This document shows positions 29,927 through 55,409 of a DNA stretch of 64,000 nucleotides, piece by piece (within the stretch, counting starts at the first letter, position 1; every line of letters starts with the position of its first letter). Below the pieces are notes generated by a model. The model was given only the letters and a program-made list of their open reading frames with translations. It searched no databases and was not told where the DNA came from. The stretch comes from Dehalococcoidia bacterium (GTDB taxonomy: Bacteria; Chloroflexota; Dehalococcoidia; SZUA-161): NCBI GenBank assembly GCA_014874385.1, contig JACWAE010000075.1, forward strand, positions 7,693-71,692, read 5' to 3'. Position numbers and translations under genes: made by a program.

Positions 29927-31162
29927 TTGAAGGACAAGGTAGTGCTGGCATATAGCGGCGGACTCGATACCTCCGTCGCCATCCGATGGATCGGCGAGAA
30001 ATACCAGATGAAAGTTATCGCCCTAAGCATAGACCTCGGTGCTGAGAAGGACTATGAGGGTATTCGCCAGAAGGCGCTCAAGGTAGGAGCAGCCAAAGCG
30101 CTGGTAGTGGATGCCAAAGAAGCGTTCATCAACGATTTCGTCTTCCCCGCCCTCCAGGCGGATGCCATATATGAGGGGCAATACACCCTTGCTACCGCAC
30201 TGGCGCGCCCTCTCATAACAAAGCTCATGGTACAGACAGCTCTCAGAGAAAAGGCATCTGCGGTAGCTCACGGCTGCACCGGTAAGGGCAACGATCAGGT
30301 CAGGTTCGATGTAACCGTACTTGCCCTGGCCCCACAACTTGACGTAATAGCGCCGGCGCGCGAGTGGGGTTTTACCCGAGAAGAAACTATGGAATATGCT
30401 AAACGCTACGGCATACCTGTGCCGGTCACTGTGAAAAGCCCTTATTCCATAGACGAGAACCTCTGGGGCAAAAGCATCGAGTGCGGCATACTCGAGGACC
30501 CCTGGGCCGAGCCTCCCGAGGAGGTGTTCACCTGGACCAAATCGCCACAGAAGGCTCCCAACAAACCGCAGTATGTCGAGATAGGCTTCAATCAGGGCAT
30601 CCCCATCAGCCTTGGCGGAAAGACAATGGGCGGTGTAGAGCTGGTGGAGAAGCTAAACGCTATCGCCGGAGAGCACGGCGTGGGCAGGATAGACCACCTG
30701 GAAAACCGCCTGGTAGGTATAAAGTCGAGGGAGGTCTACGAGGCTCCGGCAGCTACGGTGCTGCTCGCAGCTCACCTTGCCCTGGAGCAGATGACGCTGG
30801 GCAAAGACCAGCTTCGCTTCAAAGCGCGGGTGGCCCAAGAGTATGCCGACATCGTATACAACGGCCTCTGGTTCTCAGCTATGCACGAAGACCTTACGGC
30901 TTATGTAAAGAGCACACAAATCCATGTCGAAGGAACAATTCGGGTGAAGCTATTCAAGGGCAAGGCGACCGTGGTCGGGCGCAAGTCGCCCAAGTCGCTC
31001 TACAGCTATCACCTTGCCACCTATGACAAAGAGGACAAATTCGACCAGAGCGCCTCGGTGGGCTTCATCCAGATATTCGGCCTGCCGGTGAAAACGCAGG
31101 CGCAGGTACAGAGGAAGCTGGACGAGAGTCTGCGCAAAATCGGGGAGAGCGAATTCGTTTGA
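29927..31162 (+). CDS. argG: Argininosuccinate synthase
   Basis: AYSGGLDTS, HGCTGKGNDQVRF, SIDENLWG; GAGGA SD before TTG. Confidence 0.98.
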   Translation: MKDKVVLAYSGGLDTSVAIRWIGEKYQMKVIALSIDLGAEKDYEGIRQKALKVGAAKALVVDAKEAFINDFVFPALQADAIYEGQYTLATALARPLITKLMVQTALREKASAVAHGCTGKGNDQVRFDVTVLALAPQLDVIAPAREWGFTREETMEYAKRYGIPVPVTVKSPYSIDENLWGKSIECGILEDPWAEPPEEVFTWTKSPQKAPNKPQYVEIGFNQGIPISLGGKTMGGVELVEKLNAIAGEHGVGRIDHLENRLVGIKSREVYEAPAATVLLAAHLALEQMTLGKDQLRFKARVAQEYADIVYNGLWFSAMHEDLTAYVKSTQIHVEGTIRVKLFKGKATVVGRKSPKSLYSYHLATYDKEDKFDQSASVGFIQIFGLPVKTQAQVQRKLDESLRKIGESEFV

Positions 31163-31191
31163 AATCGAGCTAAACTCAGAGGTCTAGATAT

Positions 31192-32568
31192 ATGGATAAA
31201 CCTATGCGCGATCGTTTCAGTAAAGAACCCAATAAGCTGGCGAAGGGCTACACCGTCTCGGTACCCTTCGACAAACGCCTCTATCGCCATGACATCGCTG
31301 GCTCCGTAGCTCATGCCCGCATGCTCTGGAAACAGGGCATCATCCCCGATAAGGATGCCGAGCTAATCATAATGGGGCTCACTTCTATCAGGGAGGAGAT
31401 TGAGAAGGGACAGTTCCAGTTTAATAAGGAGCTTGAAGATATCCACATGAACATCGAGGCCCGCCTCATTGAGAAGATAGGCGATACCGGGGGCATGCTT
31501 CATACCGCCCGTTCCCGAAACGACCAGGTCGCCCTGGACATGAGGCTGTTCACTAAAGAAGCGATAAACGAGACCATTGACGGTCTAAAGGCTTTCCAGA
31601 GTGCGCTCTTAGACCTTGCCGAAGCTAATACGGGCGTGTCCATACCAGGGTATACCCATCTTCAGAGGGCACAGCCGGTTTTATTTGCACATTATCTCCT
31701 CGCCTATTTCGAGATGTTTCAGCGCGACATCGAGCGCCTCCAGCAATGTCTCGAACGCACCGATGTCATGCCTCTGGGCAGCGGCGCTTTAGCAGGTGTG
31801 TCTTATCCCATAGACCGCAGCTCTGTAGCCAGGGAGCTGGGCTTCAGCAAGGTGAGCGCTAACAGCATAGATGCCGTTTCTGATCGCGACTTCGTCATAG
31901 AGTATCAGGCGGCAGCCAGCATAATCATGATGCACCTCTCGCGCCTGGCCGAGGAGATTGTACTCTGGTCTACAGCCGAGTTTGGCTTCATTGAGCTTGA
32001 CGATGCCTTCGCCACAGGCTCAAGCATCATGCCCCAGAAGAAAAACCCGGATGTGGCTGAGCTGGCGCGAGGCAAGGCAGGCAGGGTTTACGGCCATCTC
32101 GTAGCTATCCTTACCACGATGAAAGGCCTGCCCCTGTCCTATAACCGCGATTTGCAGGAGGATAAAGAAGGGCTTTTTGACTCTGTAGATACCGTGCTCT
32201 CCACGCTCGAGGTATTCACCGCCATGATAGCCGGTGTGCACATAAATGCAGAGCGTACCCACAGCGCCGCCGGCGGCAACTACAGCCTCGCTACAGACAT
32301 TGCAGATTACCTGGCCAAGAAAGGCATACCCTTCCGCCAGGCTCATGCCATCGTGGGCAAGCTGGTGCGCTACGCCATCGAAAACAAAAAGTCCTTGTCC
32401 GAACTGGAAATAAAAGAATACAAAACGTTCAGCCCCAAGTTTGAGGCGGATGTAAAGTCCATCACCGTGGAGTCCTCGCTGGTATCGCGCAATGTTCCCG
32501 GGGGGACTGCCCCCGAGCAAGTCCGGATAGCCCTGGCGGCAGCTAGAAGGATGCTCAATGGCAAATAA
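31192..32568 (+). CDS. argH: Argininosuccinate lyase
   Basis: HTARSRNDQ, GYTHLQ, GSSIMPQKKNPD. Confidence 0.98.
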   Translation: MDKPMRDRFSKEPNKLAKGYTVSVPFDKRLYRHDIAGSVAHARMLWKQGIIPDKDAELIIMGLTSIREEIEKGQFQFNKELEDIHMNIEARLIEKIGDTGGMLHTARSRNDQVALDMRLFTKEAINETIDGLKAFQSALLDLAEANTGVSIPGYTHLQRAQPVLFAHYLLAYFEMFQRDIERLQQCLERTDVMPLGSGALAGVSYPIDRSSVARELGFSKVSANSIDAVSDRDFVIEYQAAASIIMMHLSRLAEEIVLWSTAEFGFIELDDAFATGSSIMPQKKNPDVAELARGKAGRVYGHLVAILTTMKGLPLSYNRDLQEDKEGLFDSVDTVLSTLEVFTAMIAGVHINAERTHSAAGGNYSLATDIADYLAKKGIPFRQAHAIVGKLVRYAIENKKSLSELEIKEYKTFSPKFEADVKSITVESSLVSRNVPGGTAPEQVRIALAAARRMLNGK

Positions 32569-46138: not shown

Positions 46139-46819
46139 TCATTCGCCCTCTTTGTGCTTCTTGGTTTCAGCCATGAATTGTTCCAGCTTGTCATCGCTTC
46201 CTGATACTATCAGAACATCACCCTGCCTTACTATCTCCACCCGGTCAGGTGTAACTATTACCTCTTTTCCTCTTTGAATTAACAAAACTGCCAGACTCCA
46301 TTTGCCCCCACGACCCAACCCTATATCAGACAACGATTTCCCCACGAAGTATGGCGATACTGCCAGTTTAGAGACCCCATAGCTGGGGGCCACCGGTATA
46401 TAGTCCTGAACGTCTGTCAAAATCAGACTATGCGCAACTCTAATCCCCATCTCGCGCTCAGGGTAAACAACCTTATCCACCCCGATTTTGTCAAGTATGG
46501 TCCCATGCAAATCATTCTCAGCTCTGGCTATCACATAGGGAATCCCCAGCTTTTTCAGCAGGATTGCACACAACACACTATTCTGAATCGCCTCCCCCAT
46601 CGTCACTATAGCCACATCGAAGTTGGCGACACCAAGCTCCCTGAGCACAGCCTCGTCTGTGGCATCTGCCTGCACAGCATGCGTTATCTGAGTTGATATG
46701 TTTTGAACCTTTTTCTCATCATCGTCCACGGCCATCACATCATGCCCCATGCTGAAAAGCGTGGTAGCCAGACTTATTCCGAACCTTCCCAGTCCTATAA
46801 TCAACACCTGCCTTTTCAT
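46139..46819 (-). CDS. ktrA: Ktr/Trk potassium uptake regulatory subunit (RCK domains)
   Basis: IIGLGRFG, ADATDE, PEREMG, C-terminal RCK_C. Confidence 0.88.
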   Translation of the reverse strand: MKRQVLIIGLGRFGISLATTLFSMGHDVMAVDDDEKKVQNISTQITHAVQADATDEAVLRELGVANFDVAIVTMGEAIQNSVLCAILLKKLGIPYVIARAENDLHGTILDKIGVDKVVYPEREMGIRVAHSLILTDVQDYIPVAPSYGVSKLAVSPYFVGKSLSDIGLGRGGKWSLAVLLIQRGKEVIVTPDRVEIVRQGDVLIVSGSDDKLEQFMAETKKHKEGE

Positions 46820-46828
46820 GTCAGCCTC

Positions 46829-48391
46829 CTATCCTATCCTTACTTGATCTTGCGGGTACCGATATTCACTCGGCTGCTGACGCTGGATGAGGGCCAATAC
46901 CAAAACGAGAGGCCCCAGCCGCCCGATAAACATAACAGCGGTAATAATCAACCGACCCGCCACAGATAAATCAGGGGTTATCCCTGTTGATAAGCCAACG
47001 GTTCCGAAGGCGGAAACCGTCTCAAACAAAAGCCTTAAAAATCCGAATCCCTTATCGGTGATTGTCAGCACGAAAACTACTATGAAAATGAGAGTTATAG
47101 ACAACATCACCAATGATAGCGCCCGGTGTATCTGCTGATTTGCGAATTCCCTGCCAAATGCTCCGGCATGTTCCTTTCCCCTGATTGTACTCCATATTGT
47201 TGCGACAAGCATGCCAAAGGTATTGACTTTTATACCTCCTGCGGTCGACCCTGCGGCCCCGCCAACGAACATGAGAAGTATAGTAAAGAATTGCGAATAG
47301 CTTTCCATACTGCCTATGTTAATACTGGAGAATCCCGCAGTTCTAGGGGTCACAGACTGGAAGAAGGCGTTAAGGACCTTATAGGGAAGTGAGAGAGGGC
47401 CAAGAGTATCCGCGTTACCGTACTCCGTCAATAAAATAGCCACAGTACCTAAAACCAGTAGCCCTAAAGTGGTGACCAGCACTATCTTGGTATCAAGGGA
47501 GAGTCTGCCGAAGCGTCGCATCCTGCCCACATCGGCCACGACTATAAAGCTGATGCCGCCGAGAATAATAAGCGCTGCGGTCGTAAGTATTACCGTTGTA
47601 TCCGTTTGATAGCCCAATAAACTGCGAAAATTGCCAAAGAGGTCTAGCCCGCAGTTGTTGAAAGCCGAAACGGCATGAAATATTGCCCTCCATGCGGCTG
47701 TCCCCGTCGGATTCTGCACGGAGAACCGGATATAAAAGATTGCAGCGCCTATGGCTTCAACTATGAAGGTAAAAAGTAGAATCCTTCTCACCAGCTTGAC
47801 CATGCCCCCCAGCCTCTCCGTGCCTAATGACTGTCCGATTAGCCACCTCTCCCGAAGCCCGATCCTACGGCCTAATAACAGTAACAGGAGAGTAGCACTG
47901 GTCATGAACCCCAGGCCGCCGACCTGAATCAGTACCAGAATAACCCCTTGGCCGAAGCTGCTCCAGTAGGTCCCTGTGTCTACTACGGCCAGCCCCGTAA
48001 CGCATACGGCTGAAGCTGCGGTAAAGAGAGTGTTAACAGGAGAGGTAAATTGCCCCGTTTTGCTCGCTACAGGTAGCATAAGCAGAATAGTGCCGAGGAT
48101 TATTACACCAGCAAAGCCATATATCATCATCAAAGGGGACAAGCCAGGTTGCTTAGGTCTGGGGATTGGAGGCAGAGGGATAAGCCACGGCCTGACCCTG
48201 GCTACACGGAATACCCTGTCTCCGAGCCTTCGCTCTGCTGGCTTTCGCTTCCAAACCGGCGGTATCTCGGGCAGTTCCAGTTCAATCTCTTCTTTTTTAG
48301 AAGACGATGTGAGCTTATCTTTTAGCCACCTGCCAATTCGTCCGATATTCATATTGCTCCCTATTTTACCTCTTTTGTCCACCTGAGTCAT
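46829..48391 (-). CDS. ktrB: Ktr/Trk potassium uptake membrane subunit
   Basis: SAVCVTGL, SAFNNCG, PRTAGF, STAGGIK, SAFGTVGLS pore loops; long basic N-terminal extension. Confidence 0.9.
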   Translation of the reverse strand: MTQVDKRGKIGSNMNIGRIGRWLKDKLTSSSKKEEIELELPEIPPVWKRKPAERRLGDRVFRVARVRPWLIPLPPIPRPKQPGLSPLMMIYGFAGVIILGTILLMLPVASKTGQFTSPVNTLFTAASAVCVTGLAVVDTGTYWSSFGQGVILVLIQVGGLGFMTSATLLLLLLGRRIGLRERWLIGQSLGTERLGGMVKLVRRILLFTFIVEAIGAAIFYIRFSVQNPTGTAAWRAIFHAVSAFNNCGLDLFGNFRSLLGYQTDTTVILTTAALIILGGISFIVVADVGRMRRFGRLSLDTKIVLVTTLGLLVLGTVAILLTEYGNADTLGPLSLPYKVLNAFFQSVTPRTAGFSSINIGSMESYSQFFTILLMFVGGAAGSTAGGIKVNTFGMLVATIWSTIRGKEHAGAFGREFANQQIHRALSLVMLSITLIFIVVFVLTITDKGFGFLRLLFETVSAFGTVGLSTGITPDLSVAGRLIITAVMFIGRLGPLVLVLALIQRQQPSEYRYPQDQVRIG

Positions 48392-48485
48392 CCATCAGAC
48401 GATGTCATCCGCCAGATAGCAAGTGTAGCGTGGCCATTCGCTTACGAAAGATGGGGGCCATCCCCATATTCATCGCTGCGCAAGT

Positions 48486-48514
48486 TTGAAAAAGGCACTT
48501 TTTGATGCTATATT
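48486..48514 (+). promoter_or_regulatory. Sigma70-type promoter of the leader/double-cubane reductase transcript
   Basis: TTGAAA-17 nt-TATATT with extended -10 TG. Confidence 0.7.
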
Positions 48515-48556
48515 ATTTGCAGACCTTTGAAAATAAATGACCAGGAGGTGAGAGCA

Positions 48557-48685
48557 GTGACCTGTGCGCGTCTTTACTTCACTTGAGTTTGAACCAAAAG
48601 GCCTGATGCAGGTTCTGCATCAGTCATCTGCTCGAAGGATCTCCGTGTCCAGAGAGAGGCGAGGGAGGTAGCCATAGCGTTTTAG
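48557..48685 (+). CDS. Putative selenocysteine-containing leader peptide MTCARLYFTUVUTKRPDAGSASVICSKDLRVQREAREVAIAF
   Basis: AGGAGGTG SD 6 nt before GTG; in-frame TGA at 48584 and 48590; SECIS-like hairpin immediately downstream; frame then open to TAG 48683-48685. Confidence 0.65.
48603..48623 (+). promoter_or_regulatory. Putative bacterial SECIS element
   Basis: Perfect 9-bp stem CTGATGCAG-GTT-CTGCATCAG. Counting the second UGA as 1-3, positions 19-24 are GCAGGT, as in E. coli fdhF SECIS (G23/U24). Confidence 0.7.
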
Positions 48686-48707
48686 CCATTGGGCTTAAGA
48701 CGCCTGT

Positions 48708-48745
48708 AAAGCGGTGGTGCGGAGTCTTCGGCCATCGCTTTTTTG
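48708..48745 (+). terminator. Intrinsic terminator in the 5' leader (attenuator)
   Basis: AAAGCGGTGGT(G)CGGA-gtc-TTCGGCCATCGCTTT followed by a T run, about 40 nt before the downstream ATG. Confidence 0.8.
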
Positions 48746-48781
48746 TTTGCTTCAAAGTAACTGAAAGGAGTTTAGTACATA

Positions 48782-50056
48782 ATGACAAACGATAACAGGC
48801 AAATGTGGACTGATTTAGGAATAGACCTCGAGCGACACGAAATGCTGCTTAATGCCCTGGGGCCGGCTTATAAAGAGATCTATCTCGCCCAGATGAATCG
48901 TCCTGAAGGGATGGAGTTTTTTGACTTCGTCGTTGGAGATATTCACGGCATTAGAGTGCGAGAGTTGCGCCAGCACGCCAAGGAAGGCGGGAAAGTAGTA
49001 GCCACCTACTGCGTCTTTGTACCAGATGAGATAGTTCTGGCTGCAGGCGCCGTTCCGGTGGGTCTTTGCGCGGGGACTAATTTTTCCATTCAGGCAGCAG
49101 AGCAAGTTCTACCGCGCAACACCTGCGACCTGATCAAGTCCTCCTTCGGCTTCAAGCTGGGACGCACCTGCCCGTATATTCAGACAAGTCATCTCATTGT
49201 GGGGGAGACTACCTGTGACGGCAAGAAAAAGATGTTTGAGATCCTGTCTGAGTACCAGCCTGTCTATGTGATGGAGGTGCCCAACAAGAAGAACAGAATA
49301 AGTCGTGACCTGTGGCTATCAGAAGTAGTTGCCTTCAAAGACGTTGTTGAGAAGCTGACTGGCAACAAGATCACGGAGGAGAAGCTAGCCCAGGCCATCA
49401 AGCTGGTGAATGGCAAGCGTCGTGCTCTCCAGCGACTGTATCAAGCCCGAAAAGCTAACCCAGTTCCCATCAGCGGAAAGGATGCACTACTGGTAACCCA
49501 GGTTTCCTTCTACGATGACGTTGCTCGTGACACCCAACAGATCAATGCTCTTTGCGATGAGTTGGAGAAACGAATTACCAATAGAAAGGGAGTCTTTCCG
49601 CCAAACTGCCCTCGTATCCTCATCTCGGGGTGTCCTATGGCTATCCCCAATTGGAAGCTGCACCATCTTCTGGAAACGTCTGGTGCTGCCGTGGTTTGCG
49701 AAGAGTCATGCATCGGCACGCGGGCTTTCAGCGACCTGGTGGCTGAGGACAAGCGGAGCATGGACGACCTGCTTAAAGCCATCGCCGATCGCTACATGCA
49801 AATCCACTGTGCCTGTTTCACGCCGAACACTGAGCGGATAGAAGATATCTTAAGGCTGGCGAAGGAGTACAAAGTTGACGGTGTGGTTCATTACAACTTG
49901 CTGTACTGTCATACCTACGCAAATGAAGCGGTGAGGGTAGACAAAGCCCTGGAGAAGGAGGGCATACCACTCCTCCGCGTGGAGACTGACTATAGTGATG
50001 ATTCGGGGCAACTAAGGAACAGAATCGATGCCTTCCTGGAGATGATACAGGAGTAG
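48782..50056 (+). CDS. Double-cubane-cluster anaerobic reductase (2-hydroxyacyl-CoA dehydratase/HgdB superfamily)
   Basis: YCVFVP, GLCAG, NTCDLIKS, ETTCDGKKK, CEESC, CACF, YCHTY, ETDYS; AAGGAG SD. Confidence 0.8.
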   Translation: MTNDNRQMWTDLGIDLERHEMLLNALGPAYKEIYLAQMNRPEGMEFFDFVVGDIHGIRVRELRQHAKEGGKVVATYCVFVPDEIVLAAGAVPVGLCAGTNFSIQAAEQVLPRNTCDLIKSSFGFKLGRTCPYIQTSHLIVGETTCDGKKKMFEILSEYQPVYVMEVPNKKNRISRDLWLSEVVAFKDVVEKLTGNKITEEKLAQAIKLVNGKRRALQRLYQARKANPVPISGKDALLVTQVSFYDDVARDTQQINALCDELEKRITNRKGVFPPNCPRILISGCPMAIPNWKLHHLLETSGAAVVCEESCIGTRAFSDLVAEDKRSMDDLLKAIADRYMQIHCACFTPNTERIEDILRLAKEYKVDGVVHYNLLYCHTYANEAVRVDKALEKEGIPLLRVETDYSDDSGQLRNRIDAFLEMIQE

Positions 50057-50239
50057 CTATCAAGGCATGACGGCACGGTCAAATTCCAGTCGAGAGAATA
50101 ATGATGCTGGTTGTAGATGGCTACCGACAACCTTTGCGGGCACCACCTTTCGAACCTAAACAAGAAGCCCAGAATGTCTACAGCGTAGGGCTCTCAACCT
50201 CTCGGTTTTTTCTGAACGCTTTACGATTGCCTGTAAAAA

Positions 50240-50293
50240 TTGACAACAAACAAAACAGGTGTAATAATGAATTAGCAACTACGCAGATGTTAA
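50240..50293 (+). promoter_or_regulatory. Promoter and probable ArsR/SmtB operator
   Basis: TTGACA-17-AATAAT followed by TTAGCAACTACGCA, repeated (13/14) at 50693-50706. Confidence 0.6.
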
Positions 50294-50303
50294 GGAGTAA
50301 GCC

Positions 50304-50666
50304 ATGATGACTAAAGCTGAAGACAAATGCGAGATATGGGCGGTGGACCAAAAGAAAGTGACCAAGACGAAGAATCGCCTGCCTACTGATGAGACATTTA
50401 CAGTTCTGGCAGAGACTTTTGGGGCGCTGGCTGATTCTAACCGGGCTAAGATACTGCATTCTTTAGTAGACCAGGAATTATGCGTCTGCGATATTGCGTG
50501 TGTCGTTGGAATCTCGGAATCTGCCATATCACAGCACCTTCGAATACTGCGAACTCTTCGCCTGGTCAAGCAACGCAAGGAAGGGCGCATGATGTATTAT
50601 TCTTTGAATGACGACCATATCCGTCAGCTTCTAGATATATGCTTAGAGCATACAAAGCATACTTAG
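50304..50666 (+). CDS. ArsR/SmtB (CadC/CzrA-like) metal-sensing repressor
   Basis: ELCVCDIA, SAISQHLR, YSLNDDHI...EH. Confidence 0.93.
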   Translation: MMTKAEDKCEIWAVDQKKVTKTKNRLPTDETFTVLAETFGALADSNRAKILHSLVDQELCVCDIACVVGISESAISQHLRILRTLRLVKQRKEGRMMYYSLNDDHIRQLLDICLEHTKHT

Positions 50667-50685
50667 TGGAGCTTTTTATTTTGCA

Positions 50686-50713
50686 TATCGATTTAGCTAC
50701 TACGCAATCGATA
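50686..50713. promoter_or_regulatory. Second probable ArsR operator before the ATPase gene
   Basis: TATCGATT-tagctactacgc-AATCGATA inverted repeat whose core matches the upstream site. Confidence 0.55.
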
Positions 50714-50736
50714 AATCAAGAAAGGAAGGCACCAGG

Positions 50737-53046
50737 ATGATAAGAGAAAGAGCCTTTAGAGTGGAGGGTATGGACTGTGCTGACTGCGCTCTTAAGATAG
50801 AAAGCGCTGTTTCTAAGGTTAAGGAGGTAGCATCAGCTCAGGTTTTCCTATCATCCTCAAAATTGGTGGTCAAACCTGCCAGCGATGGGCTGGACATAGG
50901 AGAAATAGTCAAAGCAGTGGAGAGGCTTGGCTATAAAGCGGAGCCAGAGGAGGCCACCCAATCCCTATCCCTTTATGTCGAGGGCATGGACTGTGCTGAC
51001 GAGGTGGCAGTCATCCAGAAGAAATTCAAAAGCTTGCCCGGACTCCTGAATTCCGAAGTGAATCTTGCCAGTCAGAAAGTGGACGTTACCTACGACCCCT
51101 CTCGGCTTTCTTCTCAGGATATTATCAAATCTATTGCGGAAACTGGTATGAATGCTCGGCTGGCTAAGGCCAGAACCAGGGCAAAAGCCTGGTGGCAGGA
51201 CTTTCGGGTTAAGCTCATTGCAGCTTCAGGCATTCTCTTACTTATTGCTTTTGTCCTGGAACGAGTGGGTTTAGACCATAATATAGCCAGGTCCATATAT
51301 GGCGCCTCGATTCTCGTTGGGGGTTATTATCCGGCTAAAATGGCTCTGGCCGGACTCCGTGCCAGAACACTCAACATTTATACGCTGCTGGTAGTAGCCA
51401 CAATCGGAGCCATTGTCCTGGGGTTCTGGGATGAAGCAGCCGTTCTTGTTTTTGTCTATACATGGGGAGCCATCCTCGAAACTTATGCCACAGAAAGAGC
51501 GAGAGGCTCTTTGAGGCTTTTAATGGAACTGGTACCCCGGGAAGCACTGGTGAAAAGAAATGGCCAGGAGCTAACCCTGCCGGTGGAGGAAGTACAGGTG
51601 GGGGAGACCGTAATTGTACGACCTGGCGAGAAGGTCCCTCTTGATGGAACAGTTGTAGCTGGTTCTTCTTCGGTAGATCAAGCTCCCATAACCGGTGAAT
51701 CAATCCCGGTAAGTAAGACTCCAGGTGACTTAGTCTTCGCTGCCAGCATTAACCAGCGTGGTTCTCTGGAAGTAAAAGTTGGCAAACTGTCCCAGGATAC
51801 GACCCTGGCCCGGATAATCCATTCGGTGGAGAGGTCAGAGGCTAAAAAGTCCAGCTACCAGCACTTCGCCGAGCGATTCGGCCGGATATACACACCCACA
51901 ATGTTTTGCGTAGCAGTAATTGTCGCTGTGGTACCCTGGCTATTGGGTGAGCCTTTTACTCCCTGGTTCTACCGGGCACTAGTGGCACTGGTGGTCTCTT
52001 GTTCCTGCGGCCTGGCACTCTCGGTGCCTATCTCGGTGCTAGCTGCCGTAAGCGCCGCGGCCAGAAAGGGCGTTCTAATCAAAGGCGGTGCCGACCTCGA
52101 AGCCGCTGGCCGTGTTGAAGCAGTGGTTTTTGATAAGACAGGGACACTGACAATAGGTCTGCCCAGGGTGACGGATGTTATTGCCTTAAATGGCACAGCC
52201 CCTGGGCTTCTTTCTGTAGCAGCTTCCGTTGAGTCGCGCTCGGAGCACCCGCTGGCAGATGCTATCCTGAGAAAGGCACGTGAAGATGGAGCCGAGGTGA
52301 TACCGTTGAAAGAGTTTGAAGCTTTAGTCGGAATGGGAGCCAGAGGCCGGATTAATGGCAAGGATTACTATGTTGGGAGTAAGCGCCTCGCTGACCAGAT
52401 GTTGATTCCCCTGGTCAAAGCGGAGAAGGAGATAACCCGACTTCAGTATGAAGGTAAGACTACCATCCTGGTAACAGGTGAGGGTAATATCCTGGGAATA
52501 ATCGGCGTTGCGGACCAATTACGACCGGAGGCTAAAGACACGATAGTCAAGCTCAAAAAAGCCGGAATGAAGCGAGTCGGCATGTTGACCGGAGATAATG
52601 AAGGGACTGCTCGGGCAATTGCAGCCCAAGCCGGTCTAGACGAATATCGGTCTCAACTGATGCCGGAAGATAAAGTGGAGGCGGTCAGGCAGTTAAAACA
52701 GAAATATGGCAGGATTGCCATGGTGGGTGATGGAGTCAATGATGCCCCGGCTATGGCAGCCGCCGATGTAGGAATCGCCATGGGCGCGGCCGGTACCGAT
52801 GTGGCTCTGGAGACTGCTGACCTAGCGCTGATGTCAGACGATCTTTCTAAGATATCCTTTGCCCTTGGTATCAGCCGGAAGGCCATGAACATTATCAAAC
52901 AGAATGTGGCCGTCTCACTGGCTATTGTCGCCTTAGTCGTCACGCTGGCTCTAATTGGTAAGATAGGTCTGGTACCAGGGCTTCTCATAAACGAAGGTAG
53001 CGCGCTTCTGGTTATGATTAACGGCCTACGCTTGCTGAGGAGCTAG
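50737..53046 (+). CDS. Heavy-metal P1B-type ATPase (CadA/ZntA-like) with two HMA domains
   Basis: GMDCADC and GMDCADE, TGES, SCSC, DKTGTLT, SEHP, GDGVNDAP. Confidence 0.93.
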   Translation: MIRERAFRVEGMDCADCALKIESAVSKVKEVASAQVFLSSSKLVVKPASDGLDIGEIVKAVERLGYKAEPEEATQSLSLYVEGMDCADEVAVIQKKFKSLPGLLNSEVNLASQKVDVTYDPSRLSSQDIIKSIAETGMNARLAKARTRAKAWWQDFRVKLIAASGILLLIAFVLERVGLDHNIARSIYGASILVGGYYPAKMALAGLRARTLNIYTLLVVATIGAIVLGFWDEAAVLVFVYTWGAILETYATERARGSLRLLMELVPREALVKRNGQELTLPVEEVQVGETVIVRPGEKVPLDGTVVAGSSSVDQAPITGESIPVSKTPGDLVFAASINQRGSLEVKVGKLSQDTTLARIIHSVERSEAKKSSYQHFAERFGRIYTPTMFCVAVIVAVVPWLLGEPFTPWFYRALVALVVSCSCGLALSVPISVLAAVSAAARKGVLIKGGADLEAAGRVEAVVFDKTGTLTIGLPRVTDVIALNGTAPGLLSVAASVESRSEHPLADAILRKAREDGAEVIPLKEFEALVGMGARGRINGKDYYVGSKRLADQMLIPLVKAEKEITRLQYEGKTTILVTGEGNILGIIGVADQLRPEAKDTIVKLKKAGMKRVGMLTGDNEGTARAIAAQAGLDEYRSQLMPEDKVEAVRQLKQKYGRIAMVGDGVNDAPAMAAADVGIAMGAAGTDVALETADLALMSDDLSKISFALGISRKAMNIIKQNVAVSLAIVALVVTLALIGKIGLVPGLLINEGSALLVMINGLRLLRS

Positions 53047-53714: not shown

Positions 53715-55409
53715 CTAAATCCCCTCCTCTCTTAGAGCGTTGACAATGTACTGAATCTCCTGAGTAGTCAGGCCAAAGCGGTGCAGTGTATGACGGATAA
53801 TCTCCAGCCCCGCCTCCAGCTCGGGGCGCACCATCTCAGCGACCCCCAATTCACGCAATGTCTTAATATCCTCATCTCGATGCACCCGGGCCACTACGTC
53901 GAGCCTGGGATTTATTCTGCGAGCATTCGCCATTGCCAGCCTTGTAGCTATCGGGTCGGGGAACGTAATCACCATCACCCTGGCCCTTTCCAGCCCTGCC
54001 CGCGCCAGGATTTCAGGATTAGCAGCATCACCATATATACAAGGAACACCCCTGGCACGCACCGGATCTAAATTTTTGGGGTCTATATCTACAACCAAAT
54101 AAGGGAAATTTCTACGTTCCAGCACCTTCCCCAGGTTTCGAGCCACCTGTCCGTAGCCGCAGATCACCACATGTCCCGACAGGCGCTTGCTTTCATCCGA
54201 AAAACCGGGGTCGGTATGCGAGGCAAATAGCCGCGACACCCCTCTCACCTGAATCAGTCGATGATACAACCCCGATACCAGGCCCATGCCAAAGGGTGTC
54301 AGCAACATGGTGATGCCTGCAGCAGCCAGGGTCAAAGAGTACAGGTGTTTGGAGATGATACCCATGTCCAGGGCAACAGCAGCTATTACAAAGCTGAACT
54401 CTCCTATCTGGAACAGGCCGCTCCCCGCAAAGAGAGTGGTCTTGCTGCTGTAGCCGAAAGCCCAAACTATAACAGAGACTATGATAAACTTGCCTACCAC
54501 TATTGCCGCCACTACACTCCCAACTTCCGCTGGATTCGCCACAATGAAATGGGGGTCCGCGAGCATGCCCAAAGAGACGAAGAAAAGAATGGCAAATATG
54601 TCCCTCAAAGGCCCGATGTCCGCACGAGCCTGGTGAGCATACTCAGCTTCACTCACCAGCAGCCCGGCCAGGAATGCGCCCAGCGCTACGGAGAGCCCGA
54701 CATAGTAAGCTCCAAAGGCTGCTCCAAAGACCAGGCACACCACTGTCAGCACGAAAAGCTCCCTGGAGCGTCTTTCGGTCACCCTTCTCATGAACCAGGG
54801 CAGCACCCATAATCCCAGCACGAATATCATCGCTAGAAACGAGAGAGCTCTCAGGAGATCCCATCCCCAGGCCCTCGTAAATACGCCCCCGTCGCCCCCC
54901 AGAGAAGGGAGGATAAGCATTACAATGACCACGCTGAGGTCCTGCACCAGAAGGATGCCAGCCATCACCCGCCCGTGAGGGCTTCCCAGTTCGCCGCGCT
55001 CTATGAGCGTTTTCAGCACTATGATAGTGCTGCTCATGGATATGAAAAGGCCGAACAGGAGAGACTCTCTAACCGGCCAGTGAAGCAGCCAGCCTAAACC
55101 AAAGCCCAATCCCGTAGTAGCGATTATCTGGGCAGCGCCTCCTAACGTAGCGACCCTGCCTATCTGCCTGAGGGTCTTCAGGGAAAACTCCATACCCAGA
55201 GTGAACATCAGAAGCACCACGCCGATGGTAGCGAGGGTTTCAACATCAGCCACATCGTGAATCAAGTGCAGACCGTAAGGCCCGATGGCAATGCCCACCA
55301 GGAGATAGCCCACAATGACGGGCAGCCTAAGGTGGTGCGCTATCATGCCGCCGACAAGGGCAGCCCCCAGTACTATGGCCATGTCCTCCAACAAGCTCAG
55401 CTCAGTCAT
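53715..55409 (-). CDS. CPA2 cation:proton antiporter with TrkA-N domain (KefC/YbaL-like)
   Basis: GYLLVGIAIGP, LLVQD, FFVSLG, QIGEFSF, ICGYG, YGDA. Confidence 0.92.
   Translation of the reverse strand: MTELSLLEDMAIVLGAALVGGMIAHHLRLPVIVGYLLVGIAIGPYGLHLIHDVADVETLATIGVVLLMFTLGMEFSLKTLRQIGRVATLGGAAQIIATTGLGFGLGWLLHWPVRESLLFGLFISMSSTIIVLKTLIERGELGSPHGRVMAGILLVQDLSVVIVMLILPSLGGDGGVFTRAWGWDLLRALSFLAMIFVLGLWVLPWFMRRVTERRSRELFVLTVVCLVFGAAFGAYYVGLSVALGAFLAGLLVSEAEYAHQARADIGPLRDIFAILFFVSLGMLADPHFIVANPAEVGSVVAAIVVGKFIIVSVIVWAFGYSSKTTLFAGSGLFQIGEFSFVIAAVALDMGIISKHLYSLTLAAAGITMLLTPFGMGLVSGLYHRLIQVRGVSRLFASHTDPGFSDESKRLSGHVVICGYGQVARNLGKVLERRNFPYLVVDIDPKNLDPVRARGVPCIYGDAANPEILARAGLERARVMVITFPDPIATRLAMANARRINPRLDVVARVHRDEDIKTLRELGVAEMVRPELEAGLEIIRHTLHRFGLTTQEIQYIVNALREEGI

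Follow-up and report, generated by a model that had tools for sequence, protein, structure and literature searches.

The DNA considered here, hereafter the window, is a stretch of 64,000 nt from a Dehalococcoidia bacterium (assembly GCA_014874385.1, contig JACWAE010000075.1, positions 7,693 to 71,692), the genome of which comprises 2.8 Mb in 118 contigs and is 95% complete. In the window a gene for a double-cubane-cluster anaerobic reductase (Pfam HGD-D, 6e-126; NCBIfam NF040772, 510 bits against a cut-off of 350) is preceded by a leader in which a promoter, a short upstream open reading frame (uORF) interrupted by two in-frame UGA codons, a hairpin resembling a bacterial selenocysteine insertion sequence (SECIS) and an intrinsic terminator follow one another. 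We consider this element, the selenocysteine (Sec) leader, to be almost certainly a real cis-regulatory leader of selenium genes, and quite probably a ribosome-mediated transcription attenuator in which the Sec codons UGA would act as the sensing codons.

The coordinates of the leader are collected in Table 1. Its promoter matches 10 of 12 positions of the sigma-70-type consensus in a consensus scan, and the -10 box is of the extended type, with a TG one base upstream; in other members of the family, similar TG-extended -10 boxes are seen by eye (they were not counted) 40-65 nt ahead of the uORF start. The stem of the SECIS-like hairpin, P2, begins 11 nt after the second UGA, and the segment that follows it, B′, would be translated only upon read-through of the UGAs. 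Of the further hairpins, the candidate P3 corresponds to a CCUCC...GGRGG arrangement visible by eye in the family sequences. The terminator hairpin spans approximately 48709-48739 and is followed by TTTTTT; it escaped a simple hairpin scanner because its loop exceeds 8 nt, and was recovered by an energy fold. A preliminary description had listed the promoter, the Shine-Dalgarno (SD) sequence, the GTG, the UGA-V-UGA codons, the hairpin, the TAG, the terminator and the SD and ATG of the reductase, all of which were found where it had placed them. It also presupposed a Sec machinery, and selA (549 bits), selB (376 bits, over the cut-off), selC (tRNA-Sec) and selD (396 bits) are indeed all encoded in the genome, selD itself containing one in-frame TGA.

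Table 1. Elements of the Sec leader and the gene it precedes, in window coordinates
Feature	Position	Strand	Remarks
Promoter	48486-48514	+	-35 TTGAAA 48486-48491, 17-nt spacer, -10 TATATT 48509-48514
SD of uORF	48543-48550	+	AGGAGGTG, 6 nt before the GTG start at 48557
Segment A	48544-48561	+	GGAGGTGAGAGCAGTGAC; uORF SD, spacer and start codon; predicted 5′ strand of helix P1 (anti-antiterminator)
uORF (leader peptide)	48557-48685	+	GTG; 9 sense codons (M-T-C-A-R-L-Y-F-T), then TGA 48584-48586, GTT, TGA 48590-48592; with both UGAs recoded would run to TAG 48683-48685, 42 codons
P2, SECIS-like hairpin	48603-48623	+	Perfect 9-bp stem, loop GTT
Segment B′	48623-48645	+	GTCATCTGCTCGAAGGATCTCCG; potential partners: A (P1), terminator apex (antiterminator), downstream GGAGG via CTCC (P3)
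P3, variable hairpin	48640-48668	+	Pyrimidine-rich arm TCTCC and purine-rich arm GGGAGG
Spacer hairpin	48677-48704	+	Directly 5′ of terminator; sequence and length vary among members (single-leader fold, alignment)
Intrinsic terminator	48709-48744	+	5′ arm AAGCGGTGG (D), apex, 3′ arm CCATCGCTT (E), T-tract (fold)
Terminator apex and beginning of 3′ arm	48720-48733	+	CGGAGTCTTCGGCC; predicted antiterminator 3′ strand, partner of B′
Double-cubane-cluster anaerobic reductase (regulated gene)	48765-50056	+	424 aa; SD AAAGGAG, ATG 48782

A DNA search with the whole leader in 61 related genomes returned two short matches only. A 38-nt match to the hairpin region lies in a genome of another genus, where the same elements in the same order precede the orthologous reductase. 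Among reductase orthologues gathered from 401 genomes of the class, seven upstream regions have a common layout: SD and start, 9-10 codons, TGA-NNN-TGA, a hairpin, a conserved segment and a terminator. When 185,579 species genomes were scanned with an IUPAC pattern made of the hairpin and the following segment, 10 loci were obtained, all with the titles Dehalococcoidia, Dehalococcoidales, Dehalococcoidaceae or those of "Chloroflexia" metagenome-assembled genomes (MAGs), and a slightly looser pattern gave 69 loci (contigs) in metagenomes. Together with the window these scans amount to 80 stretches, of which 71 are distinct: 57 with the SD-start motif, 13 unrelated chance matches and one truncated. 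Counts out of 57 below refer to the distinct copies with the SD-start motif; in addition 49 full leaders were folded and aligned, 53 were aligned for motif conservation, and 73 rows were fitted to a covariance model. That model, built on the 5′ half of the leader (R1), recovered 14 further and more divergent copies among the 29 loci searched (reductase orthologues or sel genes), all of them upstream of reductase orthologues; nine are in genomes of a single genus (g102), seven of these single-contig. Under strict filters, which miss weak copies, the model found the leader in 8 of 151 genomes of a sample of the class and in 4 of 151 of a sample of the phylum, one of the latter lying outside the class. 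All named carrier records are Dehalococcoidia or Chloroflexota, and the window's genome has a single copy. A chance origin of the leader is excluded by the recurrence of the ordered elements in 57 distinct sequences, and on this evidence the window leader is a member of a conserved leader family. SelB was found in 99 of the 151 genomes of the class sample and in seven of the eight that bear the leader.

The genes directly downstream point to selenium. In 30 of the 57 copies (31 with the truncated one) the next gene is a double-cubane reductase, judged by N-terminal likeness to the window's scanned protein. It is YedE-type in 14 (TIGR04112 was scanned in loci L067 and L101, and the gene of L079 is YedE/FdhT-like), YedF-type in four (TIGR03527 scanned in L063 and L107), an ArsP_1 permease with a weak likeness to SaoE in three (L072 scanned) and an unidentified gene in one; in four the contig ends and the downstream sequence is absent. 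The second genes include the reductase activase TIGR00241 (L069), which often follows the reductase, DUF3343/Se_S_carrier PF11823 (L067, L097), found in second place behind YedE, and a YedF C-terminal domain (L119). The target genes of a leader-peptide attenuator are expected to serve the supply of the amino acid that is sensed, as YedE, YedF, DUF3343 and the reductase with its activase do here. In the accessible part of its text, Lin et al. 2015 (PMC5322559) draws on gene neighbourhood to link YedE, YedF, DUF3343, an HGD-D subunit and the activase with the use of selenium, and according to the available portion of a 2022 preprint (10.1101/2022.07.06.499078), 955 of 970 NF040772 proteins come from SelD-containing genomes.

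Some peculiarities of these downstream genes deserve mention. The permease at L072, L117, L118 and L146 (the last in genome G057) is a new candidate for a selenium-related transporter. At L101 YedE is apparently split into a 90-aa ORF without a family match and a 285-aa ORF matching only positions 60-336 of TIGR04112; a frameshift, a misassembly or an in-frame Sec codon might explain the split. The window's reductase is not followed by an activase, unlike that of many other leader loci.

The uORF bears the signature of translation. Its start codon is in frame with a UGA in all 57 copies, the first UGA being codon 11 in 52 of them and codon 10 in four; L108 has UGC as codon 11 and UGA as codon 13. 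UGA-N-UGA occurs in 49 copies, a single UGA in seven and UGA-N-N-UGA in one. The distance from AUG to UGA is 27-30 nt, and the differences in length are of 3 nt (27 as opposed to 30) or 6 nt (in L111 and L118, which have a single UGA); the 9-10 codons ahead of the UGA thus change in length by multiples of three, and they differ in sequence among subfamilies. Segment A, from SD through spacer to start codon, is nearly invariant across the 49 and the 53 aligned leaders. Where a UGA is replaced, the substitute is UGC (Cys) for one UGA in L108 and for the second in L054 and L055, or CGA for the second in L070 and L059. Two properties of leader-peptide attenuators are therefore present: a short translatable leader ORF with a properly spaced SD, and clustered codons for the sensed amino acid (UGA in 57/57, in tandem in 49/57). 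The UGAs of the leader are presumably read as Sec.

Alternatively, the product of such a uORF might be a small selenoprotein with a role of its own, about 40 aa long and with a U-x-U motif, which would share its transcript with the selenium genes and sense nothing. The UGA-N-UGA and the SECIS-like hairpin would indeed specify U-x-U, and the residues just before the UGAs are fairly conserved (F/I-T-U). The N-terminal 9-10 residues are not shared among subfamilies, however, and the nucleotides 3′ of the UGAs, although nearly invariant, are in another reading frame in 7 of 57 copies, so that the constraint downstream of the UGAs would therefore seem to fall on the RNA and not on the peptide. The read-through stop varies in position, from 47 to 80 nt after the loop among the frames that end in UAA or UAG, 7 of the 57 main-family copies and nine g102 copies have a single UGA, and a coding role would leave unexplained both the terminator before the next gene and the complementarities of B′. 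We hold a peptide with a function of its own to be highly improbable.

With numbering from the U of the last UGA (position 1), the G and U of the P2 loop in the window are nucleotides 23 and 24. For the E. coli SECIS the rule is a loop G23/U24. Among the 57 copies the loop G is at 23 in 35, 26 in 14, 25 in two, 22 in two, 29 in one and 37 in three, and in 53 the spacing between the last UGA and the loop G-U falls within 22-26 nt. The five genuine selenoprotein genes that were used for comparison, all from the window's genome, have their hairpin loop G-U at 22-24; they are selD (GAG-U-ACK), two fdhA formate dehydrogenases (CARL-U-H), a peroxiredoxin (FTFV-U-PTE) and a GrdB-like gene. They were chosen by hallmark motif, as a scan for TGA-interrupted ORFs with a hairpin gave 4,984 candidates, 143 of which passed the filter and were mostly noise. 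Both marks of a bacterial SECIS, a hairpin directly 3′ of an in-frame UGA and an apical loop G-U at a fixed distance of about 20 nt after it, are thus found and conserved, and P2 appears SECIS-like by the standard of the window's own genome. In the main family compensatory changes occur at two of seven conserved P2 pairs, and at more once the divergent subfamily is included; as the pair closing the loop, 32 rows have G-C and 13 have A-U, and another pair is U-A in 42 and C-G in five. Genus g102 has a wholly different, GC-rich P2 stem, and the loop G is nevertheless 23-26 nt from the single UGA in eight of its nine copies.

In the window's own genome (G000), selenoprotein genes with an in-frame TGA lie at C93:23129(+), C97:22575(-), C8:28190(+) and C112:46233(+). 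Two of them encode alpha subunits of formate dehydrogenase, one a peroxiredoxin and one a GrdB/PrdB-like protein, and a standard gene caller would truncate them.

The geometry of P2 and the fact that it directly abuts P1 would also suit a SelB-dependent RNA operator in which no Sec is inserted: SelB bound to P2, alone or together with Sec-tRNA, would shift the balance between P1 and the antiterminator through its bulk or through stabilization of P2, and the uORF would simply end at UGA. There is a precedent in E. coli, where SelB reportedly represses the translation of selAB through a SECIS-like element in the 5′ untranslated region (UTR). Such an operator needs neither an SD and start in frame with UGA (57/57), nor the 27-30 nt between AUG and UGA, nor tandem UGAs (49/57), nor a spacing equal to that of SECIS elements, and UGC at UGA positions (L108, L054/L055) suggests that decoding takes place there. 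We consider an operator without Sec insertion improbable, and return to the attenuator in which the UGAs are decoded.

Three mutually exclusive structures are predicted for the leader RNA: P1 (A with B′), an antiterminator (B′ with the apex) and the terminator (D with E, plus the U-tract). The antiterminator, which the preliminary description had not specified, and the anti-antiterminator P1 are additions to that description. In all 49 leaders, no upstream segment is a better partner of segment B than A, and the A:B′ duplex has -15 to -27 kcal/mol, with z-scores of -2.4 to -6.2 relative to shuffled sequences. The complementarity of B′ to the apex and the start of the terminator 3′ arm emerged from an unbiased duplex search; over the 49 leaders it averages -18.2 kcal/mol and a z-score of -3.0, 35 of them falling below -2, and although the terminator apices belong to eight sequence families, all are complementary to B′. 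Since B′ lies 5′ of the terminator 5′ arm, its pairing with the apex crosses and excludes the stem D:E. Pairing of B (11 nt) with the terminator 5′ arm had also been considered as the antiterminator; it averages -7.1 kcal/mol, the arm being the best downstream partner in 16 of 49 leaders, and was demoted in favor of B′ with the apex.

The alignment supports each of these structures. The OFF structure (P1, P2 and terminator) is paired in 96.2% of alignment cells, compared with 36-54% when slid by 1-3 columns, and eight of its pairs show compensatory changes; the 10 pairs of the terminator stem D:E are held in 97.3% of cells, four of them with compensatory changes. For the antiterminator with P2 the value is 86.3%, as against 26-56% when slid, the antiterminator's two helices alone being paired in 82.8% and 73.8% of cells. 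In the 73-row alignment, which is fitted to the model, leans toward the structure for that reason and contains three antisense rows, P1 and P2 are paired in 94.8% of cells, and 14 of 23 pairs are compensatory, compared with a shuffled mean of 6.8; none of 500 shuffles reached the observed value. Automatic terminator calls in genus g102 are unreliable. The preliminary description had proposed to look for compensatory changes in the helices, for the order of UGA-bearing uORF, hairpin and terminator upstream of related genes, and for a conserved spacing from UGA to hairpin. The helices do show such changes, the order recurs upstream of orthologous double-cubane genes and of YedE, YedF and DUF3343, and the spacing is conserved within subfamilies and equals that of the genuine SECIS elements of the window's genome.

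Folding of the 49 leaders under different ribosome positions is congruent with a switch. With no ribosome, P1 formed in 43, the terminator in 48 and the antiterminator in one. When the 5′ part was blocked to 15 nt past the first UGA and the RNA ended before the terminator 3′ arm, the antiterminator formed in 41. A ribosome placed at the read-through stop gave P1 in 41, the terminator in 48 and the antiterminator in one. Exclusive terminator and antiterminator structures that depend on the position of the ribosome, as leader-peptide attenuators have them, are thus predicted by computation.

A long, structured and conserved 5′ leader with a terminator, ahead of transport genes for one element, could also be a metabolite riboswitch for a selenium compound, the uORF and UGAs being incidental. 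No Rfam family reached its gathering score anywhere in the 64-kb window, and a permissive search of 47800-49300 (E up to 10) gave chance-level matches only (wcaG, SAM-Chlorobi and a viral pseudoknot; best E = 0.3). Apart from the helices, the conserved single-stranded parts are the SD, the start codon and the UGA codons, and the stretch from start to UGA varies in sequence while its length stays in multiples of three; neither a conserved multi-helix junction nor a pocket is apparent. A riboswitch is accordingly a very unlikely explanation. The wcaG RNA match, at 48689-48779, scores 17.4 bits where the gathering score is 42 (E = 2.4); its overlap with the terminator comes from a common UGGUGCGGA, and it was judged to be due to chance.

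With respect to the mechanism of attenuation, we find it on balance likely that the tandem-UGA leader peptide and its single SECIS hairpin set a three-way switch (ribosome-binding site with B′, B′ with apex, or terminator) that gauges SelB-GTP-Sec-tRNA(Sec) and governs a selenium acquisition regulon. A ribosome would load on the very strong SD once A has been transcribed, and translate 9-10 codons to reach UGA-N-UGA. With SelB-GTP-Sec-tRNA(Sec) plentiful on P2, both UGAs would be decoded and ribosomes would cross P2 and B′ to the stop upstream of the terminator; B′ being occupied or re-paired with A, the terminator would form and the selenium genes would be OFF. With Sec-tRNA scarce, the ribosome would stall or be released at UGA, leaving B′ untranslated and A kept busy by ribosomes, and B′ could then capture the emerging terminator apex, allowing transcription into the uptake and trafficking genes (ON). 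In the complete absence of translation, A:B′ and the terminator would form (OFF). A second ribosome might sit on A behind the stalled one, the constant 30-nt distance from AUG to UGA corresponding to the length of one ribosome. It is tempting to speculate that two UGAs on one hairpin would make read-through steeply dependent on the concentration of the SelB ternary complex.

The same architecture might also work with the opposite polarity, read-through in selenium-replete cells opening P1 and leading to antitermination, such that a supply of selenium would switch the genes on. The distance of B′ behind the read-through stop is 13-46 nt, which by our own estimate of the footprint puts it outside the ribosome in most members, and B′ could pair with the apex if the next ribosome holds A; polarity, moreover, is not derivable from sequence alone. 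On the other hand, B′ falls entirely within that part of the uORF which is translated only upon read-through, the fold with a ribosome at the read-through stop yields P1 and the terminator, as described above, and it is scarcity that normally induces uptake genes such as YedE. In the classical attenuators (trp, his and leu) the passing ribosome masks the antiterminator strand. We regard induction by selenium as unlikely, and the switch is presumably ON when Sec-tRNA or selenium is scarce; its polarity is the least secure step of the proposal.

Several results weigh against the attenuator as proposed. We infer Sec insertion, binding of SelB, termination and polarity alike from the sequence. G057, a leader-bearing MAG that is 90% complete, gave no match to selB. 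The single-sequence fold of the window leader is unexceptional (z = -1.68) and is no stand-alone support, so that the case for this leader is based on the comparison with other copies and not on fold energy. The antiterminator of the window is weak, with -16.0 kcal/mol and a z-score of -2.0 that is reached by 5% of shuffles, as are those of L062 (z = -1.2) and L069 (z = -0.6). Cognate pairs of B′ and apex are only modestly stronger than non-cognate ones (-18.2 versus -16.1 kcal/mol; permutation p = 0.0245, eight families), and B by itself pairs best with the terminator 5′ arm in just 16 of the 49 leaders. Given the high sequence conservation, much of the pairing support is conservation and not covariation. 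When the 5′ part is blocked to 15 nt past the first UGA in the full-length RNA, the terminator forms in 33 of 49 leaders and the antiterminator in 16; with the terminator thus favored at equilibrium in most "stalled" leaders, antitermination would have to be kinetic. The stalled ribosome does not itself cover A, and the exclusion of P1 would depend on the putative second ribosome or on a steric argument. Because every one of the three frames is open through P2 and B′, an open read-through frame cannot be counted as separate evidence. One hairpin would have to serve two UGAs, and in some variants the distance from UGA to loop extends to 29-39 nt. The g102 member L042 has the loop CUUGC without G-U, unlike the eight other copies of its genus; it may be in decay, or the change may be tolerated. 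Finally, the GC-rich variants L067, L083, L105, L121, L051 and L052 are without a recognizable intrinsic terminator.

These GC-rich variants, four of which (L067, L083, L105 and L121) are upstream of YedE, have a longer insert between UGA and hairpin, the loop G lying at 25-39 nt. The main gene of L067 has a ribosome-binding site that is a close likeness of segment A of the uORF and a potential partner of B′. The GC-rich variants may represent a translational version of the switch.

The Sec leader resembles the trp, his, leu, thr and ilv attenuators in its short uORF with clustered sensing codons, in the choice of B′ between an upstream partner (1:2) and terminator sequences (2:3), as opposed to the terminator itself (3:4), in the predicted termination by default when there is no translation, and in targets that supply the sensed amino acid. 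It differs in that its sensing codons would be stop codons recoded through SelB and an mRNA hairpin, and that the read-out would be read-through as opposed to stalling or release at UGA, in place of the slow decoding of a sense codon. Moreover, its segment 1 is the ribosome-binding site of the uORF itself, its antiterminator would invade the apex and 3′ side of the terminator and not the 5′ arm, and it appears to control the uptake and trafficking of an element and not an amino-acid pathway. As in the E. coli selAB element, a SECIS-like hairpin in the 5′ leader would couple the status of Sec decoding to expression. The selAB element is said to act on the initiation of selA translation, to have no decoded UGA, leader peptide or terminator, and to control the Sec machinery itself, whereas in the Sec leader the hairpin follows in-frame UGAs of a uORF, a terminator/antiterminator pair comes next, and the targets are transport and handling genes. 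T-box leaders likewise respond to the state of one particular tRNA by forming either a terminator or an antiterminator; they bind uncharged tRNA directly, without translation. The T-box consensus and specifier architecture had no match in 47800-49300 even at E up to 10.

In Treponema primitia, according to the accessible text of Matson et al. 2013 (PMC3892789), selenium controls the transcription of fdhF(Sec) by translational coupling. There, failure to decode a Sec UGA uncouples translation from transcription and alters completion of the transcript, as it would in the Sec leader; as far as that text goes, the UGA is inside the selenoprotein gene, scarcity truncates the gene's own transcript, no dedicated leader or antiterminator is involved, and the physiological sign is the opposite. 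The transcription factors LysR_Se and HrsM adjoin Sec genes in the portion of Lin et al. 2015 (PMC5322559) that is available, and are candidate selenium-responsive regulators of the same gene set, acting as proteins at promoters in contrast to the cis-acting RNA and ribosome of the Sec leader.

The window's genome (G000) contains a second double-cubane reductase, 79% identical to that in the window (C112:27799-29070 and 30449-31375; locus L032), with selD about 1.4 kb downstream of it. No leader precedes this copy, and its divergent upstream gene reads by eye as LysR-type. The same layout of reductase and divergent LysR-like gene (LysR again by eye) is present in G005, G001 and G024, and genomes of the same genus have, instead of the leader, a divergent gene ahead of the reductase that was judged by eye, on the sequence upstream, to be LysR-type. 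Possibly two control systems, LysR_Se and the leader, serve one gene family.

The preliminary description had supposed that such an attenuator may be undescribed, and in the literature, as covered exclusive of supplements and subscription journals, we found no description of a Sec leader-peptide attenuator or of a selenium riboswitch. In the accessible part of a 2026 review of prokaryotic selenoproteomes the words leader, attenuation and riboswitch do not occur, and selenium homeostasis and its regulatory network are described as not understood in the accessible text of Lin et al. 2015 (PMC5322559). For the largely unexplained regulation of selenium uptake and trafficking in bacteria, the Sec leader offers an answer that can be tested. 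If correct, the proposal would add the first known attenuator that senses by means of a recoded stop codon, would supply selenium homeostasis in bacteria with its first defined cis-regulatory logic, and would extend leader-peptide attenuation to the 21st amino acid, decoded by stop-codon recoding. The shared cis element would define a selenium regulon, and independently ties YedE, YedF, DUF3343, the reductase with its activase and the ArsP/SaoE-like permease to selenium supply; it might also serve as a marker for further selenium genes. Other possible uses are a ready-made biosensor for selenium or Sec-tRNA and a test bed for the competition between SelB and RF2 and for tandem Sec insertion.

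The neighborhood of the leader in the window contains other types of genes. Downstream of the reductase, at 50101-53046, a 68-aa ORF that matches no family is accompanied by a regulator of the ArsR family and a P-type ATPase containing two HMA domains, the last two of which are a heavy-metal efflux unit. Divergent from the leader promoter are the potassium-uptake genes TrkH and TrkA (46139-48391, minus strand), and an Na+/H+ exchanger with a TrkA_N domain occupies 53715-55409 on the minus strand; all three are ordinary genes.

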